From: Candidatus Daviesbacteria bacterium RIFCSPHIGHO2_12_FULL_37_16
Lineage (GTDB): Bacteria > Patescibacteriota > Microgenomatia > Daviesbacterales > UBA10151
DNA: 64,000 bases
Assembly: GCA_001776785.1 (NCBI GenBank)
Contig: MFDF01000008.1
Location: 18,443-82,442 of the forward strand
Direction of reading: 5' to 3'
A program made the translations under genes and the position numbers. The notes under the pieces are model-generated. The model did not search any database. It was not told the DNA's origin and saw nothing but the letters and a program-made list of their open reading frames with translations. Below are positions 3,330-24,283 of the stretch, in pieces; the first letter of the stretch is position 1, and every line of letters begins with the position of its first letter.

Positions 3330-3896
3330 ATGAGCAAAATTTCAATTATTGCAGCTATGAGTAAAAACAGGGTTATTGGGACAAAAAATAAACTTCCATG
3401 GAATATCCCTGATGAATTAAAAAGGTTTAGGCAAATTACAGAAGGTCATCCAATAATCATGGGCAGAAAAACCCATGAATCCATTGGTAGGGTTTTACCC
3501 AATAGGCTAAACATTATTATCACAAGGGATGAAAATTATATTCGCAAGAATAATCTTGCTCATTATCAAACAAGATATAAAGTTGATGGTGTAATAATTG
3601 TCCATTCTTTGGAAGAAGCCATAAAAACTGCTAAGAATATATATCCTTCGGCTGCGCCCGCCTTTGGCGTGGCTGCGCCTCAGGATGACAAAAGTGAAAT
3701 CTTCATTATTGGGGGCGGGGAGATTTACAGACAGGCTTTACCCTTGGCAGATAAACTATATTTAACAGTAATAGATAAGAAATATGAAGGTGACACCTTC
3801 TTTCCAGACTATTCTGAGTTTAAAAAGGTGATAAAAGAAGAAAAAAAACAAACTGATGGTGGAGTTTCCTATACTCTTTTTGAACTTGAAAAATGA
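3330..3896 (+). CDS. folA: dihydrofolate reductase with two in-frame insertions
   Basis: IIAAMSKNRVIGTKNKLPWNIPDELKRF and IIMGRKTHESIG are classic DHFR motifs; extra loops NYIRKNNLAHYQTRYK and YPSAAPAFGVAAPQDDKS relative to E. coli DHFR. Confidence 0.85.
   Translation: MSKISIIAAMSKNRVIGTKNKLPWNIPDELKRFRQITEGHPIIMGRKTHESIGRVLPNRLNIIITRDENYIRKNNLAHYQTRYKVDGVIIVHSLEEAIKTAKNIYPSAAPAFGVAAPQDDKSEIFIIGGGEIYRQALPLADKLYLTVIDKKYEGDTFFPDYSEFKKVIKEEKKQTDGGVSYTLFELEK
3535..3580. repeat. short repeat, copy A (in frame within folA); 31-nt core near-identical to 17382-17415
   Basis: attatattcgcaagaataatcttgCtcattatc (A) vs atttatattcgcaagaataatcttgTtcattatc (B), followed by aaacaagatataa / aaaaaagatataa. 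Confidence 0.6.
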
Positions 3897-4264
3897 TATC
3901 TTGACCACCCCATAATTTTTCTGATAAGTTATTCTTAACTTCATGGCAAGGGAAATGAACGGAATTAGCCAGGATATTCAAAAGATAGAAACTTTCACTG
4001 ACCAACTTTCAACAAATAAGCATTATTCAGAAAAAGGGGGACACCAAGCTAGAGGTTTCTGGTGGAGAGATATCAGAAGAATCTATGGAGGGTCTACAGA
4101 TGTAACACCAAAAGATTTTAGCTGGATGCAGCGGAGAAAAATGCCGCGTAACCCAAGCGATGGCAAACATTGACTTTTAAGCCTAATTCCTGCTAATATA
4201 CCCAAATCACACATCTAGTATTTTAATTTCCTAAATTCATGATACTAGAGAGGTTTAAGGAAAT

Positions 4265-5209
4265 ATGGCAATTTCAACACCTTCAATGCAGGAGTTATTA
4301 ACAGCAGGTGTCCACTTTGGACACAAGATCTCCCGTGGCCACCCTAAGATGAAGCAATTTATCTATGGTGCAAGAGAAGGAGTGCATATTATTGATTTAG
4401 CCATGGCAGATGAAAAGTTAAAAGAAGCAGCAGAGGAAGCTTATAAGTTAGGAAAAGCTGGAAAAGTTTTATTAATTGTAGGTACAAAAAAACAAGCCCA
4501 GCAAAAAATAGAAAGCTTGGCTAAAGAAGCAAACTCCTTTTATTTAAACAAAAGGTGGGTTGGAGGGCTTTTGACAAATTTTGAAGAAATCAGAAAAAAT
4601 ATTAAAAAATTAAATGACTTAAAAATCCAGCAGGAAAAAGGAGAACTTTCAAGGTATACAAAAAAAGAACAGCTTTTAATCTCCAGAAAATTAACTAAAT
4701 TCATCTCAGAACTTGGAGGGATTGCAGATATGGATAAAATCCCTGATGCAATGTTTATTGTAGATGCAGTTTCAGATAAAACTGCAGTTGTAGAAGCCAA
4801 AAAAACAGGAGTAGAAGTTTTAGGCCTTTGTGACACAAATGCAGACCCATATTTTTTTGACTTCCCGGTCCCTGCAAATGATGATGGAATTAAATCAATA
4901 AACCTCATTTGTGACACAGTTTTGGGAGCATATGTAAAAGGCAAAAAATCCTCCTCCGCTCAAGCTACGGAGGACAAGGAAGCTGGAATAAAAGAAGAGT
5001 CGAAGGAGTCGGAAGGGACTGAAGAGCCGAAGGTCAAGAAAACTGGGGAAAAAGCAGGGGAGAAAAAATCTGAAAAAATAGAAGAAAAAACAGAAAATCC
5101 TGAAGAACCGGCACCAGCAGTTGATGCAGCAGTAGCCCATGAGACAGCTGCCCTAGAAGAAGAAGTAGAAAAAGTAGTTTTAGAGGAAAGTGAGAGGAAA
5201 ATAGAATAA
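4265..5209 (+). CDS. rpsB: 30S ribosomal protein S2 with acidic C-terminal extension
   Basis: MQELLTAGVHFGHKISRGHPKMKQFIYGAREGVHIIDL is the S2 signature; the Glu/Lys-rich tail contains a GC-rich hairpin repeat. Confidence 0.95.
   Translation: MAISTPSMQELLTAGVHFGHKISRGHPKMKQFIYGAREGVHIIDLAMADEKLKEAAEEAYKLGKAGKVLLIVGTKKQAQQKIESLAKEANSFYLNKRWVGGLLTNFEEIRKNIKKLNDLKIQQEKGELSRYTKKEQLLISRKLTKFISELGGIADMDKIPDAMFIVDAVSDKTAVVEAKKTGVEVLGLCDTNADPYFFDFPVPANDDGIKSINLICDTVLGAYVKGKKSSSAQATEDKEAGIKEESKESEGTEEPKVKKTGEKAGEKKSEKIEEKTENPEEPAPAVDAAVAHETAALEEEVEKVVLEESERKIE
4953..4975. repeat. GC-rich hairpin motif cctccgctcaagctacggaggac (copy in rpsB); related copy at 8388-8411
   Basis: TCCTCCG...CGGAGGA stem; 20/23 identical to cctccgctaaagctacggcaggac in the proS leader. 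Confidence 0.5.
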
Positions 5210-17381: not shown

Positions 17382-17431
17382 ATTTATATTCGCAAGAATA
17401 ATCTTGTTCATTATCTTTAAAAAAGATATAA
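17382..17431. repeat. short repeat copy B (intergenic, glyA-ybaB), near-identical to folA-internal copy 3535-3580
   Basis: 31/32-nt identity. Confidence 0.6.
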
Positions 17432-17433
17432 TT

Positions 17434-17715
17434 ATGTCTATGGGAATAATGGACAGTATGAAACAGCTTGGGGATCTCAAAAAGATGAGAGACCAGGCTA
17501 TGGAAGTTCAAAAAAAGCTAGCTCTAATAAAAATTACAGTAGAACACAAAGGTGTAACTATTGTCATGACTGGTGATCAAAAAGTAGTCTCTATCTCAGG
17601 GGAAAATGATCTTGATAAAGTCACAGAAGCTGTTAATGAAGCATTAAAACAATCCCAAAAAGTTGCTGCAGAAGAGATGAGATCCTTAATGGGCGGTCAA
17701 ATCCCCGGAATGTAA
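17434..17715 (+). CDS. ybaB: nucleoid-associated protein YbaB/EbfC
   Basis: MKQLGDLKKMRDQAMEVQKKL...VTIVMTGDQKVVSISGEN; ATG at 17434 preferred over the TTG at 17404. Confidence 0.85.
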   Translation: MSMGIMDSMKQLGDLKKMRDQAMEVQKKLALIKITVEHKGVTIVMTGDQKVVSISGENDLDKVTEAVNEALKQSQKVAAEEMRSLMGGQIPGM

Positions 17716-17721
17716 CCAGAA

Positions 17722-18123
17722 TCAGTGATTAATGATTACTGATTTAGGATTAATGAATGTTTTGCTCTTTTTAATAAATCCCTGTAACAATTTATCAACT
17801 ATATTCGCTTGATCTGCTAAATTCATCATTGCCTCATTATTCAAATAACCAACATCTTTTGCAATTAAAATAAAGTTTTTCAATTCTGATAATGAGCCTT
17901 TTGATAAATAATAAAACTGAACCTTCTCTTTATAACCTTGCCTACCAAAACCTTCTGCAATATTAGCCGTTATAGAAGCTGCAGCTCTTCGCATCTGATC
18001 AGTAATAGAATAAGTTTCTTCCTTTGGAAAGTTCTTAGTAATTTTGTAAATCAAGATAACTAGTTTATGCCCTTCTTTCCAGACATTTAAATCAGTAAAA
18101 GTTTCAATTTTCCCATTCCTCAT
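17722..18123 (-). CDS. four-helix-bundle protein (TIGR02436-like, 23S rRNA intervening-sequence protein family)
   Basis: W..GHKLVILIYKITKNFPKEETYSITDQMRRAAASITANIAEGFGR...SLSEL pattern. Confidence 0.8.
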   Translation of the reverse strand: MRNGKIETFTDLNVWKEGHKLVILIYKITKNFPKEETYSITDQMRRAAASITANIAEGFGRQGYKEKVQFYYLSKGSLSELKNFILIAKDVGYLNNEAMMNLADQANIVDKLLQGFIKKSKTFINPKSVIINH

Positions 18124-18160: not shown

Positions 18161-18658
18161 CTAAGGAGTTGCAGATGAAGATGCAGTTGATGGTTGAGCA
18201 GTTGGTGAACTGGTAGGTTCAGAAGTTGGCTCAGAAGTTGGGCTTGGTGTTGGAGTAGGACTCTCAGTTGGTGCAGGTGTAGGAGAGGGAGTTGGGCTGG
18301 TTGTTTTTACAGGTGCTTTTTTAGGTGCAGGGGTGGGAGTAGAGGTGGGTGTTGGGATTGGGGTAGAAGTTGGGAATGGGGAAGGCTGCGGTGTTGCTTC
18401 TACTGCTTCTCCAGCAACCTCAGGGTTTGGAAAAACTAAATTTTTTATAAACACTCCACCTGAGAAAACTATAACTACTAAAACCAAAATAAGTCCAGCT
18501 GTTAATTTGTTAAAATTCCTTAATCTTTCCACTTTTAACTCCTTATATACTAAATACTGTATACTATTGTCAAACAAATGGCCACAATTCCTAAAGTAGT
18601 AAGAGATCTTATTGATGCTTTTGAGAGGCTGCCTGGTATTGGTCCAAAAACAGCCCAA
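18161..18658 (-). CDS. membrane-anchored Pro/Thr-rich protein (start probably downstream of the annotated Met)
   Basis: TM helix then [11 protein letters not shown]... low complexity; the ORF 5' end overlaps the recR start, so a GTG/TTG internal start is likely. Confidence 0.35.
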
Positions 18659-19174
18659 AGGTTAACTTATTACCTTTTACATGCCCCAAAGGAAGAAGCA
18701 AAAGCTTTAGCAGAGTCTGCCCTGGCCCTAAAAGAAAAAACTGTCCTTTGCAGTGTTTGTTTTAATATCTCTGAAACTGACCCATGTGAAATAGAAACAG
18801 ACCCGCTCAGGGATAAATCTGTGATTGCAGTGGTTGAAGACCCTCTGGATATGCTTGCCTTAGAAAGAGCAAATTTTAAAGGGCTTTACCATGTTCTTCA
18901 TGGAGCAATCTCTCCTTTAGAAAACATAGGGCCAGAGGAACTGCACATTAGGGAACTGCTCCCAAGGTTAAAAGATGGGACTATAAAAGAGATAATTTTA
19001 GCAACTAACCCAACAATGGAAGGTGAAGCAACAGCCATGTATATAGATAGACTTATAAGACCACTTGGAGTAAAGGTTACAAGAATTGCCAGGGGACTGC
19101 CAGTAGGGGGAGATTTAGAATATGCAGATGAAACTACATTAAGCAGGGCGCTTGAAGGCCGCAAAGAGTATTAA
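18578..19174 (+). CDS. recR: recombination protein RecR
   Basis: Hh[13 protein letters not shown], zinc finger C-x2-C...C-x2-C, Toprim domain. Confidence 0.95.
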
Positions 19175-19178
19175 GTCT

Positions 19179-19245
19179 CCAAGAAACAAGATACAAGTAT
19201 CCAAATATAGTTTGTTTCTTGTATCTTGGACACTTGGTTATTATC
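19179..19245. repeat. inverted-repeat hairpin element (ccaagaaacaagatacaag-loop-cttgtttcttgtatcttgg + cttggttattatc) right after the recR stop
   Basis: Same arms as 5779-5888; 19-nt arms with 2 mismatches. Confidence 0.6.
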
Positions 19246-19253
19246 ATTAAGCT

Positions 19254-19688
19254 ATGGCTAATGGTTTAAGAGGACAAATTGCAGATACAGCTTATGAGAC
19301 TTTAGAAGAAATTCCAGCTGCAGTTGGGAAACCAGTCCAGGATGAAGTTGGTAAAATGATAGAAGTTGGTGTCCAAGCAATTCAAGGACAAACCACAGAT
19401 CCCCAAAAATTAGCCCAGCAGCAGGAACAGGCAGCTAAAAGTAAAAAAGATACAGAATTAAAAAGAAGAAAAGTTCAGGCCTGGTTAAATGAATTAAATA
19501 GGCAGCAGACTGCACTAAATCAGCAAAATCTAAAAAAACAGCAGGAAAAACAGGCACAATCCCAGGAAGAAAAACAAAAAAAAGAAGTTAAACAGTTTGA
19601 AGTTGTCCAAAAAAGACAAAACTTAATTGATGAAAATGTCAGGGCAAAACAAGCCAAAGCTGAAATTAAAAGAGGAGTAGGTGGATAA
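19254..19688 (+). CDS. hypothetical Gln/Lys-rich coiled-coil protein
   Basis: Compositional only. Confidence 0.35.
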   Translation: MANGLRGQIADTAYETLEEIPAAVGKPVQDEVGKMIEVGVQAIQGQTTDPQKLAQQQEQAAKSKKDTELKRRKVQAWLNELNRQQTALNQQNLKKQQEKQAQSQEEKQKKEVKQFEVVQKRQNLIDENVRAKQAKAEIKRGVGG

Positions 19689-19690
19689 TC

Positions 19691-20719
19691 TCAAATACCT
19701 AAGTTAGTTTTTAACATTTCCTGTAACTGACTTTCATTGTCAGCATCATTAAAAAGCTCAATTAGTCTATCACCTTCAATTGCAAAATCATCTAGTAATC
19801 TTTCAAAAGCTCTCAAGCTGTAAAATCTTAGGAACAAATCATTAAATTGCTGCCATCTTTTATCTCTTGTGCCAACTAGAATTTCTACTGAACTTGATCT
19901 CTGCTCGTCTTCTCTAGGACTAATACCGCAGAGTGAGTAGAAATAAGTTGGTAAATCATCCATTGAGGCAGTTAAGAACGACTCTTCAGAAACTGGGATA
20001 GGGTAAACCGTACTTGCTTCCCAATCTATTCCTTCAACATTTCCTCTTGGTGTAACCCAAAAGTTTTTTAATTGCGGATCAGAATGTCTGATACCGGAAG
20101 CGTGCAAATCAGCCAATAGAACAGCATTTCTGTGTATAAGCTGTTCAAAATATGTTTTGGCTAAGAATTCTCCTGTATGAAATTGTGACCAGGGTTCACT
20201 ATCTAATGTTTTAGTATCTGTTCTGGCAACCGATACCAAAAAGCCGGAATCTTCCTCTGAAATAAAGCAGATTGGGTGGACTGTCTTAAAGCCCCTATCT
20301 AATACTTTTAATGTATTTTTTATTTCTATTATACCTTTTGCCGTCTGCTTAAAAGGTTTAACTGCCACATTCAAAAGTTTAACTTCGCCTGTTTCGCTAT
20401 CTCTTATTTCAATAATTCCAAAAGAAACATTGTGTGCACTTCCACCTCGGACAAACCAATCTTGTTCTCCTCTTCTTTGACCAATCCTCAAAACCTGTCT
20501 GCCGGAAAATTCCGGAGCGAGAAAAACGCCATCCTTAAAATGGTTTCCTTCTGCAATATTAATTACATGCGAATTTTTTCTGAAGTGCTTTTGGACTGCT
20601 GCATTAGCATCTTTTAATACCGGGCTTGGATTTTTTTCCCAGTGTTTTATACTCTGTTTTTCTGCGTAAGGAGTAATTACATCTGGGGATGAAACAGGAC
20701 TAAGCAGTTCAGTCATCAT
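19691..20719 (-). CDS. protein-kinase-like fold protein (atypical), function unknown
   Basis: VAVKPFKQ (VAIK-like Lys), catalytic-loop-like HSDPQLKNFWV (cf. HRDLKPEN) and IDWE (DFG-like). Confidence 0.4.
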   Translation of the reverse strand: MMTELLSPVSSPDVITPYAEKQSIKHWEKNPSPVLKDANAAVQKHFRKNSHVINIAEGNHFKDGVFLAPEFSGRQVLRIGQRRGEQDWFVRGGSAHNVSFGIIEIRDSETGEVKLLNVAVKPFKQTAKGIIEIKNTLKVLDRGFKTVHPICFISEEDSGFLVSVARTDTKTLDSEPWSQFHTGEFLAKTYFEQLIHRNAVLLADLHASGIRHSDPQLKNFWVTPRGNVEGIDWEASTVYPIPVSEESFLTASMDDLPTYFYSLCGISPREDEQRSSSVEILVGTRDKRWQQFNDLFLRFYSLRAFERLLDDFAIEGDRLIELFNDADNESQLQEMLKTNLGI

Positions 20720-21369
20720 TTTATCTTATTTTTAAAACTTTGTTTAAGGATTTCTATTTGTGATTCATGAGGATGATTTGGATCCTGCCTTTTTAATTCA
20801 TCTAAAATCCTTTGAGAAACCTCGTCTAGTGTTATTTCTGTATCTAGGACATAAGGAGGTAGAAGTCTAATTAAATCTTTCTGGCCCTGGGTAAGAACTA
20901 AATCTGAAAGATGCAACTCTTTAGGAAGGGCATTTGTGGCTTTATAAATTTTTCCCAAGATTGCCCCGACTTCAGTCATGATTTCAAAGGCACCTAAATA
21001 GCTCTGGGTAAATCCCTGCTCTTTAAATTGCATGCCGTCAAGAGGTCTTGTATTATAGGGAATCTTTACTACCTCAATAAGACTACTGTCATTATAGCCA
21101 ACTGTTTCAAATGCCGGAACATTAGCTTTAACAAAAAGATCCTTAGGTAAAGTTTCATTTGTTGCTGGTTGAAAAAAAAGATATCTTTGATGTCCAAGTA
21201 CAACATCAACGCCTCTTCTGTTCCTGGTTAAATTATAACCAAAATTGATCTCTGTGCCCCCTCCTTCTAATAGCACTTCACGCAAGTCATTAATATCCCT
21301 ACTTGTTCTAACTGCGTTCTTTGCAAGCTCTTCATTTGACCCATTTTCTTCATGTTCTAATTCATTCAT
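20716..21369 (-). CDS. hypothetical protein, 4-nt overlap (operon) with the kinase-like gene
   Basis: ORF and operon context only. Confidence 0.35.
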   Translation of the reverse strand: MNELEHEENGSNEELAKNAVRTSRDINDLREVLLEGGGTEINFGYNLTRNRRGVDVVLGHQRYLFFQPATNETLPKDLFVKANVPAFETVGYNDSSLIEVVKIPYNTRPLDGMQFKEQGFTQSYLGAFEIMTEVGAILGKIYKATNALPKELHLSDLVLTQGQKDLIRLLPPYVLDTEITLDEVSQRILDELKRQDPNHPHESQIEILKQSFKNKIK

Positions 21370-21432
21370 GGAATTAATTATAGGCTATAATGTTTATTAT
21401 ATCAATAACCCTCCTTGGAATAGATATTATTC

Positions 21433-22812
21433 TTGAATATAATAAACTCAGTTTCATTTAATTATATGTTAAAAATATATAACTCTCTATCCAGAAAAGT
21501 TGAAGAATTTATTCCTCTAAACCCTCCTAAGGTTGGGGTCTATACCTGTGGTCCAACTGTTTATGACTTTCAGCATATTGGAAATTTCAGGACCATGATT
21601 TTTTCAGATATTCTTTTAAGAACTTTAATGGCCAATAATTTTGATGTTAAGTCAGTAAGGAATATAACAGACATAGATGACAAAATAATAAAAGCTGCAA
21701 AAGAAAAAAACTTAGGGATTGAAGAATTTAGCTCTGAATTTACAACTGCTTTTTTTAATGATTTAGGTAAGTTAAATATTCTCCCTGTAGATGTTTCCCC
21801 CAAAGCTACAGAACATGTTACTAAAATGGTCAAATATATAGAAGTTTTAATAAAAAAAGGTTTAGCTTATATAGAAGATGATGGATCTGTATATTTTGAT
21901 ATTTCTAAATTCCCAAATTATGGAAAACTCTCAGGGCTGGAAAAAAGGCAGTTAAAAACAGGGACCAGGATTTTGTCTGATGAATATTCAAAAGAAGATG
22001 TTCAAGACTTTGCTTTATGGAAATCAATTAGTCCTTCTGAGGTTGGATATGACTCTCCCTGGGGCAGGGGCAGGCCTGGCTGGCACATAGAGTGCTCAGT
22101 TATGAGCCAGGAATATTTAGGGGAGACTTTAGATATCCATGCAGGTGGGATAGACCTATTATTCCCCCATCATGAAAATGAAATTGCCCAATCAGAAGGG
22201 TATACAGGCAAACCCTTTGCTAATTTTTTTGTCCATGGAGAGCACTTATTAGTTGAAGGGGCAAAAATGAGCAAATCCTTAAAAAATTTTTATAAACTCT
22301 CAGATTTAGAAGATAAAGGTTTTGAACCCCTCTCCTACAGATATTTAGTTTTAACAGCCCACTACAGGGATAAACTAAATTTTACCTGGGAGTCTCTTCA
22401 AGCTGCCCAAAATGCTTTAAATAATTTAAGGGAAATAGTAAGAGGTTGGGATGAACCCAAAATAGGCTGTGCAGAGTTTGAGCAAAGGTTTATGCAAGCT
22501 ATTAACAATGATTTAAATACCCCAACTGCTTTGGCAGTAATGTGGGAAATGATAAAGTCTGATTATCCAGCTTCTGCAAAAGCTGCATCAATTTTAAAAA
22601 TGGACAAAGTTTTAGGTTTAAAATTTGATGGGTATGTTGGAAAGCAAATAGAAATCCCTGATAATGTTAAAAAATTAGTTGACCAAAGGGAAAATGTTAG
22701 AGAATCAGGAGATTTTGAACTTTCTGATAAGTTAAGAAAAGAAATTAAAGGTTTAGGATATGAGCTAGAAGATACTTCAAAGGGACCAAGAATTAAAAAG
22801 CTAATTACCTAA
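21433..22812 (+). CDS. cysS: cysteinyl-tRNA synthetase (probable start at the MLKIYNS Met)
   Basis: CGPTVYDFQHIGN (HIGH), KMSKS, zinc-binding residues. Confidence 0.9.
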   Translation: MNIINSVSFNYMLKIYNSLSRKVEEFIPLNPPKVGVYTCGPTVYDFQHIGNFRTMIFSDILLRTLMANNFDVKSVRNITDIDDKIIKAAKEKNLGIEEFSSEFTTAFFNDLGKLNILPVDVSPKATEHVTKMVKYIEVLIKKGLAYIEDDGSVYFDISKFPNYGKLSGLEKRQLKTGTRILSDEYSKEDVQDFALWKSISPSEVGYDSPWGRGRPGWHIECSVMSQEYLGETLDIHAGGIDLLFPHHENEIAQSEGYTGKPFANFFVHGEHLLVEGAKMSKSLKNFYKLSDLEDKGFEPLSYRYLVLTAHYRDKLNFTWESLQAAQNALNNLREIVRGWDEPKIGCAEFEQRFMQAINNDLNTPTALAVMWEMIKSDYPASAKAASILKMDKVLGLKFDGYVGKQIEIPDNVKKLVDQRENVRESGDFELSDKLRKEIKGLGYELEDTSKGPRIKKLIT

Positions 22813-22857: not shown

Positions 22858-23529
22858 GTGTCAGAAGTTATAACTATTGATGGTCCGACTTCTTCAGGGA
22901 AGTCTTCAGTGGGCCATCTTTTTTCTGCTAATATAGGTTTTCAGTTTATAGATACCGGCGCAATTTATCGGGCTGGATCCCTTTTCATCCTTGAAAATAA
23001 TCTAAGTACAGCTGATGAAAACGTATGTGCCAAAGTTTTTGAAAATTTAAATGTTGAATTCAAAGAAATTGATGGGTCCCAAAGAATTTTTCTGGATGGT
23101 AAAGATATAACTGAAAAACTCCACTTACCTCAAGTCACAAAAGTAGTTCCAATAATTGCAGCTTTCCCTAAAGTCAGGGAATTATCTAAAAAAATCCAAA
23201 GGAAAATTGGCAGTTTACAAAATACAGTTATGACAGGAAGGGATATTGGCACAGAAATTTTTCCTGACAGTAAACTCAAAATTTTTTTAACTGCATCTCC
23301 CGAGATTAGAGCAAAAAGAAGGTATGAACAGTTAAAACAAAAAGACTTAGATATTTCATATGAAAAAGTTTTAGAAGAGATGTTAAAAAGGGATGAAGCA
23401 GATTCCATCAGGGAGGCTTCTCCATTTAGAAAACCTGATGATGCAGTTGAAATTGATACAACAAATTTAACAACTAAGCAGACTGTAGAAAAGATGTTAG
23501 AATTATTTAAAGCCCGTGGATTATCTTAA
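22858..23529 (+). CDS. cmk: cytidylate kinase
   Basis: ITIDGPTSSGKSSVG P-loop, overall CMP kinase architecture. Confidence 0.9.
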   Translation: MSEVITIDGPTSSGKSSVGHLFSANIGFQFIDTGAIYRAGSLFILENNLSTADENVCAKVFENLNVEFKEIDGSQRIFLDGKDITEKLHLPQVTKVVPIIAAFPKVRELSKKIQRKIGSLQNTVMTGRDIGTEIFPDSKLKIFLTASPEIRAKRRYEQLKQKDLDISYEKVLEEMLKRDEADSIREASPFRKPDDAVEIDTTNLTTKQTVEKMLELFKARGLS

Positions 23530-24283
23530 CGCTATAATTTTGTCCATAGTTGAGGGAGCAACAGAATTTCTTCCGATTTCTTCAACTGGCCATTTAGTTT
23601 TAGCATCCAAAGTTTTAAATATCCCCCAGACAAATTTTATTAAAAGTTTTGAGATTTTTATTCAACTTGGTGCAATCCTGGCAGTAGTTTTTTTATATTG
23701 GCAAAAACTTATATATAATTTCAAACTTTGGAAAAATATTTTAATTGCTTTTATTCCAACTGCAATTGTAGGATTAGCTTTTTATGAAATAATTAAAAAC
23801 TATTTTATTGGGAATTTACAAATTACTCTTCTGGCACTTTTTTTAGGTGGTTTAATTTTAATCTTTGTAGATAAACTTCTAAAAGAAAAAGATTTTGATA
23901 GTTTAGAAAAACTAACTGTTAAACAATCTTTACTAATTGGACTGGCCCAATCTGTTTCTGTAATTCCAGGAGTCTCCAGGGCTGCTGCCACCATCATTGG
24001 CGGGCAATTTGCAGGGCTTAGTAAAAAAGCAGCTTTAGAATTTTCATTTCTTCTGGCAATCCCAACAATGTTTGCAGCCACTGGGTTGGATGTTATAAAA
24101 AGCAATTTTAACTTCTCTTTAACTGAGTGGTCCTATCTTTTTATTGGATTTATTGGATCATTTATAACAGCCCTTTTTGTTATAAAGTGGTTTATAAAGT
24201 TTGTTGAAAAAAATAACTTTTTCATATTTGGAGTTTACAGAATAATCTTAAGTATTTTATTCTGGTTTACCTTTTTAAGGTAG
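23516..24283 (+). CDS. uppP: undecaprenyl-diphosphate phosphatase
   Basis: GATEFLPISSTGHL and SRSG(A/T)TI-type motif (VSRAAATIIGG); 8 TM. Confidence 0.9.
   Translation: MDYLNAIILSIVEGATEFLPISSTGHLVLASKVLNIPQTNFIKSFEIFIQLGAILAVVFLYWQKLIYNFKLWKNILIAFIPTAIVGLAFYEIIKNYFIGNLQITLLALFLGGLILIFVDKLLKEKDFDSLEKLTVKQSLLIGLAQSVSVIPGVSRAAATIIGGQFAGLSKKAALEFSFLLAIPTMFAATGLDVIKSNFNFSLTEWSYLFIGFIGSFITALFVIKWFIKFVEKNNFFIFGVYRIILSILFWFTFLR

Follow-up and report, generated by a model that had tools for sequence, protein, structure and literature searches.

A conserved gene pair of Patescibacteria predicted to encode a Kdo/WaaP-like kinase and a non-enzymatic partner

Bacteria of the Candidate Phyla Radiation (CPR), or Patescibacteria, account for much of bacterial diversity and have very small genomes in which many genes are of unknown function. 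In a genome of Candidatus Daviesbacteria, the 64,000-nucleotide (nt) stretch analysed here (the window, from contig MFDF01000008.1) carries two overlapping genes between recR and cysS. They encode proteins of 342 and 217 amino acids (aa), the former with a few motifs that recall protein kinases. What does such a pair do, and what binds its two genes together? We propose that they encode a two-subunit cytoplasmic phosphotransferase, formed by a Kdo/WaaP-like kinase and a non-enzymatic partner that is probably a degenerate kinase copy, with a sugar or another small molecule as the most likely substrate; we give this reading a probability of about one half. The pair is laid out as follows.

19691–20719 (−): kinase-like gene, 342 aa, a predicted phosphotransferase of a CPR-specific branch related to the Kdo/WaaP kinases
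20716–21369 (−): partner gene, 217 aa, the first gene of the operon
20716–20719 (−): ATGA stop/start overlap between partner gene and kinase gene, of the translational-coupling type

Both genes appear in the list of open reading frames (ORFs) with the lengths and the 4-nt overlap reported by the first-pass annotation. At their junction, GATAAAATGATGACTG, the TGA of the partner gene overlaps the ATG of the kinase gene within ATGA. Kinase homologues start with M-T-E, and the family-invariant Met corresponds to the second ATG; if translation began there, the overlap would shrink to a 1-nt TGATG, and in both cases the arrangement may serve translational coupling. Exact copies of both proteins are recorded from Candidatus Daviesbacteria genomes.

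Active site, fold and family of the 342-aa protein

Four segments of the 342-aa protein were assigned to the kinase active site, with conservation taken from an alignment of 43 family members whose identity goes down to 17%.

20420–20449 (−): RGGSAHNVSF, family-specific equivalent of the glycine-rich loop; S94 invariant, H96, V98 and F100 nearly invariant
20351–20368 (−): VAVKPF, strand beta3 with the invariant ATP-binding Lys121 (translation and alignment)
20054–20086 (−): HSDPQLKNFWV, catalytic loop with invariant D214 (catalytic base) and N219 (Mg ligand), matched to HRDVKPGN of PknA (alignment)
20018–20029 (−): IDWE, DFG equivalent with invariant D232 (Mg ligand) and invariant E234 (alignment)

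The last three motifs translate exactly as the first-pass annotation had quoted them, and its kinase-like reading is supported: the Lys, H-x-D and Asp positions behind it are kept in the homologues. The catalytic set K121, D214, N219 and D232 is invariant, as are the family-specific residues S94, W177, E234 and Y300; P149, D173, A203, H212 and D255 join the three loop residues listed above as nearly invariant positions, and Q216 is nearly invariant in a 17-sequence alignment. The protein therefore carries all four residues by which the protein kinase-like (PKL) superfamily is recognized, namely the beta3 Lys, the catalytic-loop Asp, the Mg-binding Asn and the DFG-equivalent Asp. Structure prediction, proposed beforehand as the check on a non-kinase fold, returned a bilobal kinase fold, with a five-stranded N-lobe and alphaC followed by a C-lobe with alphaE, the catalytic loop and alphaF. 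The invariance of the catalytic set across 43 relatives argues that the protein is probably catalytically active, and we have high confidence in its prediction as an active enzyme of the kinase fold.

The family has four hallmarks. Three are a long, poorly modelled GGSAHNVSF loop that replaces the glycine-rich loop (in the predicted structure, RGGSAHNVSF lies within a long low-confidence loop, and the predicted local distance difference test score, pLDDT, is <50 at residues 85–95), a catalytic loop of the form H-x-D-x-Q-x-K-N-F, and IDWE. The fourth is the very short activation segment that follows IDWE: helix alphaF (245–263) starts a mere ~12 residues after D232, so that an activation segment of the protein-kinase type is missing.

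An exhaustive profile search of 1.84 billion representatives retrieved 565 relatives at E<=1e-3, of which 252 reached E<=1e-10; almost all measure 300–390 aa. These relatives represent clusters at 50% identity, so the family comprises at least 565 clusters; genome and metagenome scans with the small kinase alignment A1 reached only 9 and 7 loci, respectively. Searched alone, the 342-aa protein gave only sub-threshold matches, all at residues ~175–248 (Pfam Kdo/WaaP, E 0.021; LanKC kinase domain, E 0.021; Bud32, E 0.084; and PknA), and its 14.7 bits against PF06293 fall under the gathering threshold of 21.3 bits. The 43 members matched Pfam families as follows.

Kdo/WaaP (PF06293): 21 of 43 members (E<0.01), best E 8.9e-10
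APH: 11 of 43 members, best E 1.9e-5
Pkinase: 10 of 43 members, weak, best E 1.1e-6
RIO1: 4 of 43 members, best E 0.0018

One Saccharibacteria member (L011) reached 42.1 bits against PF06293, and several others scored nothing. Three weak outgroup matches from other bacteria (L014, L019 and L020) are bona fide Kdo-family proteins, with 75–87 bits, and share the Q-L-K-N-F catalytic loop. Judged from these profile matches, the kinase family is a divergent, unnamed radiation next to Kdo/WaaP and partly overlapping it; by the same measure the 342-aa protein lies outside the curated PF06293 boundary and is not filed as a member. The earlier statement that no match to a known family could be recognized holds for the protein itself, which stays below threshold everywhere, but not for its family, which borders PF06293 and has some relatives above the threshold. 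Named records of the family come from Daviesbacteria and from Saccharibacteria or Saccharimonadales, apart from one Gammaproteobacteria-labelled contig. This contig (CAZXEW010000080.1, loci L002 and L006, 5.7 kb, 'uncultured Gammaproteobacteria bacterium') has the order YbaB, 23S-IVP protein, RecR, small ORF, kinase and partner, and is probably a mis-binned CPR contig, because its gene order is that of the Daviesbacteria window.

Does the enzyme act on proteins? In a protein-kinase signalling module it would phosphorylate Ser, Thr or Tyr, perhaps also on its partner, which would be a substrate, an adaptor or an allosteric regulator. We consider this unlikely, although it is the strongest of the alternatives. 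The family profile matches 201 solved kinases, always across alphaE, the catalytic loop and the DFG equivalent and with D214, N219 and D232 on the canonical residues; its best sequence match is the Hanks-type PknA (E 3.6e-6), ten members match Pkinase and one member is named a serine/threonine protein kinase by its source. However, the short stretch between D232 and alphaF comes with neither an APE motif nor a GHI-type substrate-docking region, and the Kdo matches outnumber the Pkinase matches and have better E-values. The structural neighbours likewise belong to the atypical branch (Bud32, WaaP, APH and RIO) and not to the Hanks kinases, with listed figures of 15.5 for Bud32, 14.8 for WaaP, 13–14 for further Bud32 chains, 12.5 for APH(3'), 12.3 for methylthioribose (MTR) kinase, 12.2 for RIO1 and 12.1 for SelO. 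Membership among the Hanks-type Ser/Thr kinases was rejected, given the ~12-residue spacing and the lack of any Pfam Pkinase (PF00069) match of the 342-aa protein at E<=10.

A Bud32/RIO-like ATPase switch is a still less probable alternative. Here the kinase-fold subunit would mainly hydrolyse ATP, powering a conformational change in some housekeeping complex (ribonucleoprotein or enzyme), with the partner as a Cgi121-like accessory. Bud32 heads the structural neighbours; membership in Bud32/KEOPS was rejected, with 12.4 bits against TIGR03724 for a cut-off of 125 and no consistent adjacency to TsaD, which is nearby in one locus only (L026).

Conservation and possible origin of the 217-aa partner

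Co-occurrence of the two genes, a check that the first-pass annotation had suggested, was followed by reading the DNA upstream of the kinase homologues. Among the 20 distinct loci with enough upstream sequence, 19 encode a partner homologue directly upstream of the kinase gene; these ORFs lie on the same strand, measure 184–268 aa and overlap or abut the kinase gene (gap −32 to +28 nt). The pair is more than a chance arrangement, because the kinase has 565 homologous cluster representatives and partner homologues keep the same position in nearly all loci. Moreover, the pairwise identities of kinase and partner are correlated across 18 loci (r = 0.92, reached by 0 of 2000 permutations), with the partner less conserved than the kinase in 93% of the locus comparisons.

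The partners are demonstrably related to one another. BLASTP of the 217-aa protein against three upstream ORFs gave E-values of 4e-52, 3e-36 and 5e-12, an iterative hidden Markov model (HMM) search united 17 distinct partner sequences, each entering at E<=3e-4, and the most divergent Saccharibacteria-type partners joined by profile–profile comparison (hhalign, probability 91%, E 9e-7). Word-indexed homologue searches retrieved the partner alone, and no more than three proteins even with a profile; its conservation is visible only in the DNA upstream of kinase homologues. Described earlier as an unknown protein, the partner indeed has no family match, but with homologues in 19 of the 20 loci it is no orphan. 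Repeated weak matches of the partner HMM to UppP/BacA (23516–24283, +), with an E-value of 8e-4 that became 4e-14 once UppP was absorbed into the profile, were rejected as an artefact of hydrophobic composition, and the search was repeated without UppP; the same artefact would contaminate automated iterative searches for the partner family.

Several loci depart from the common arrangement. The sole locus without a partner (L010) encodes a 361-aa Saccharibacteria family member (3782–4867, +) within 6.4 kb of surrounding DNA, and a DDAH/arginine deiminase (ADI)-like gene on the opposite strand occupies the usual partner position. In L025, tandem partner paralogues of 242 and 268 aa (1380–2108 and 2181–2987, +) precede a single kinase gene, so at least one lineage has duplicated its partner gene. 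The kinase gene of L012 (3744–4702, +) seems to be split into ORFs of 97 and 210 aa, 297 nt downstream of the partner; either the gene is a pseudogene with a frameshift or the assembly is wrong here. No partner–kinase fusion was found among the 157 family members fetched.

Across 19 partners, invariance is limited to P104 and P171, no polar residue is conserved, and no partner matches a family in Pfam, NCBIfam or PADLOC. The partner is therefore very probably non-enzymatic, and it is likely to be a non-catalytic subunit. Its lack of an enzymatic signature would also fit a substrate or regulator in a signalling module, but no Ser, Thr or Tyr is conserved.

Could the partner be a kinase that has lost its active site? 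An hhalign comparison of its profile with the kinase family aligned partner residues 76–162 with kinase residues 134–223, that is, with alphaC, beta4, beta5, the hinge, alphaE and the catalytic loop (E 0.003, score 27.8). This score exceeds those of 100/100 column shuffles (maximum 15.7), 100/100 twelve-column block shuffles (maximum 21.8) and the reversed profile (11.5). Among 177,635 PDB sequences, the sole match of the partner profile is the pseudokinase TRIB2, a weak one (E 0.28) that places partner residues 126–169 on alphaE and the degenerate catalytic loop in the same register as hhalign. Dozens of sub-threshold HMM matches on kinase-family proteins likewise set partner residues ~107–154 against kinase residues ~175–230. 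The predicted order of secondary structure in the partner, three strands, a short helix, two strands and a long helix, also fits a kinase. One segment falls on the active site.

20854–20925 (−): partner core PKELHLSDLVL ... LIRLLPP, aligned with the kinase catalytic loop and DFG equivalent; P171 invariant

In this register the catalytic Lys, Asp, Asn and Asp are all lost, as expected of a pseudokinase; the core has no catalytic residue, with hydrophobic positions at H-x-D and Asn and L/I-P-P at the DFG Asp. Two points weigh against a kinase origin: the only structure model of the partner is unusable (pLDDT 48), and the hhalign probability is low (10%). The relation surfaced only with the 17-sequence partner profile, direct hhalign comparison of the small alignments A1 and A2 giving nothing. 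With three weak sequence signals converging on one register, we lean slightly towards a kinase-like fold for the partner. More tentatively, the pair may be an obligate kinase–pseudokinase heterodimer that goes back to the duplication, long ago, of a Kdo/WaaP-like kinase and has persisted in CPR lineages from Microgenomates to Saccharibacteria. If so, a minimal, catalytically dead kinase domain of ~200 aa, encoded by the operon of its active paralogue, would activate or target that paralogue on a CPR-specific substrate, as a prokaryotic counterpart of regulation of the STRAD–LKB1 type.

Proposed function and genomic context

Under the two-subunit phosphotransferase that we favour, Lys121, probably paired with Glu132 of alphaC, would position ATP; Asn219 and Asp232 would bind Mg2+, and Asp214 would be the base that activates the substrate hydroxyl. 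Translational coupling would allow the 217-aa partner to be made in step with the kinase, and the partner, probably a pseudokinase that descends from an ancient copy of a kinase domain and has since degenerated, would bind the kinase and stabilize, activate or target it. Rather than a protein, the substrate would most likely be a sugar or glycoconjugate hydroxyl or some other non-protein small molecule. Four points favour a sugar or glycoconjugate: the nearest family is one of sugar kinases, protein-kinase activation and docking apparatus is lacking, the D-x-E motif resembles that of small-molecule kinases, and glycosyltransferases flank the pair in one lineage. A sugar or small-molecule substrate is a tentative assignment all the same.

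The surroundings of the pair fall into three types.

Microgenomates type (relatives of 26–46% identity): ybaB, recR and a small Q/K-rich ORF, then the pair convergent to it, then a divergent cysS
Saccharibacteria type: Mur-ligase and DDAH/ADI-like genes upstream of the pair, groES–groEL downstream
Third lineage (L001, L007 and L008): pair between a GT4 and a membrane GT2 glycosyltransferase

Glycosyltransferase neighbours were found in this third lineage only. In the Saccharibacteria type, eight loci (L009, L011, L013, L022 and L024–L027) have the Mur-ligase gene and a DDAH/arginine-deiminase-like (or arginase) gene upstream and groES–groEL 105–130 nt downstream on the same strand, and the pair could possibly be co-transcribed with the chaperonin genes. 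The lineages have no neighbour in common, and the module is self-contained. No neighbourhood contains an FHA domain, a phosphatase or any other signalling partner, which is a further point against a signalling role. Could the pair instead be a HipA/HipT-like toxin–antitoxin system or serve in anti-phage defence, with the small upstream protein neutralizing the kinase? This is highly improbable and was rejected. The small protein does come first and overlap the downstream kinase, as in many toxin–antitoxin operons, and the nearby aminoacyl-tRNA synthetase gene cysS recalls the targets of the HipA family. However, neither window protein has a PADLOC defence-family match, searches of phage genomes, plasmids and viral contigs gave no relatives, gene order is conserved, and kinase and partner diverge together.

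The following features surround the pair in the window.

17404–17715: YbaB
17722–18123 (−): 23S-rRNA-IVP family protein (PF05635, E 4e-37; weak bAvd-like match), between ybaB and recR
18161–18658 (−): 165-aa ORF, a hydrophobic segment and then a long Pro/Thr/Ser-rich tail; no Pfam match
18578–19174 (+): RecR
19254–19688 (+): conserved ORF of 144 aa, rich in Q/K/E and with the C-terminus ...KRGVGG, placed between recR and the kinase gene, convergent with the latter
21377–21405 (−): promoter-like site TTGATA-17-TATAAT, 11/12 matches, ending 7 nt from the partner ATG
21433–22812 (+): CysS, divergent from the pair
Further neighbours: Cmk and UppP (the latter at 23516–24283, +)

The first-pass annotation was right in placing the pair between recR and cysS and divergent from cysS. 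The pair is not an insertion, however, since the Microgenomates gene order is conserved, and the 144-aa ORF, which that annotation does not mention, intervenes between recR and the kinase gene, its stop codon 2 nt from that of the latter. Homologues of this ORF (137–174 aa) occupy the same tail-to-tail position in four Microgenomates-type loci (L002, L003, L015 and L023), with phmmer E-values of 5e-10 to 8e-6 in L002, L003 and L023; they are absent from the Saccharibacteria-type loci, and the ORF has no family match. A 23S-rRNA-IVP family protein (PF05635) is also encoded at the equivalent position in L002. The 5' end of the 165-aa ORF overlaps the recR start (18578) by ~80 nt on the opposite strand, which makes it uncertain where this ORF starts, or whether it is a real gene at all. 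The best promoter-like site, TTGATA-17-TATAAT, is a consensus match only, and such sites are no more frequent here than expected by chance; with no Shine–Dalgarno sequence between it and the partner ATG, its position suggests a leaderless or near-leaderless mRNA. No terminator-like site was found within 19100–21700. The transposon sequencing and annotation tables of the Saccharibacterium S. epibionticum (PMC10633639) hold no counterpart beside groES, and their sole 'Protein kinase' ECOD domain is on UbiB; fitness data therefore do not apply to the pair.

Comparison with known systems

The two-gene module is conserved across Microgenomates, Saccharibacteria and unclassified lineages, and its vertical inheritance beside housekeeping genes makes a lineage-typical function likely. 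Fold and chemistry are already known, but the kinase family lacks a dedicated curated model and the partner family lacks any; literature searches returned no description of the kinase family and, as far as we found, the obligate operon pairing is undescribed. Defining the family gives biochemistry a concrete target in an opaque group, with candidate substrates that include cell-envelope glycoconjugates in organisms without lipopolysaccharide (LPS), which CPR bacteria are not known to make.

Among known kinases, the 342-aa protein resembles Kdo/WaaP (PF06293; Pseudomonas aeruginosa WaaP, PDB 6DFL) at the active site, but it is ~100 aa longer, with an N-terminal extension, and has the long GGSAH-containing loop instead of a short glycine loop. 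Kdo/WaaP kinases act on a sugar of the LPS inner core (Kdo or heptose), whereas the hosts here are CPR bacteria. It also keeps the Mg-binding Asn, where WaaP has His168 (PMC6147952). WaaP needs tightly bound acyl-acyl carrier protein (acyl-ACP) for its solubility and activity (PMC6147952); the partner of WaaP is thus ACP, whereas the family described here has a dedicated protein of ~200 aa encoded in the same operon. Compared with Bud32 of KEOPS (PDB 4WW5 and 8K20) and the RIO kinases, the 342-aa protein differs in its catalytic-loop and glycine-loop signatures, and unlike in KEOPS the pair has no linkage to Kae1/TsaD and a partner without detectable similarity to Cgi121. APH, choline kinase and MTR kinase (PF01636 and relatives) have a large, helical C-terminal subdomain for substrate binding that the 342-aa protein lacks; family matches to APH-type kinases are weaker than those to Kdo/WaaP, and APH-type enzymes have no dedicated partner protein.

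The closest parallel for the partner, if it is kinase-folded, would be the bacterial pseudokinases in which all three catalytic motifs are lost (PMC12599244), and it would act non-catalytically on an active kinase, as in pairs of the eukaryotic STRAD–LKB1 type. A 2025 review distinguishes seven bacterial pseudokinase families (ActPs1–3, GLW, CP1, DYD and DLHK), all of which originate from Hanks-type Ser/Thr kinases and most of which are multidomain or membrane proteins, and it makes no mention of CPR or Patescibacteria (PMC12599244). If it is a pseudokinase, the partner would add to these seven an eighth, structurally minimal bacterial family, and the first to be tied to a sugar-kinase-like lineage.
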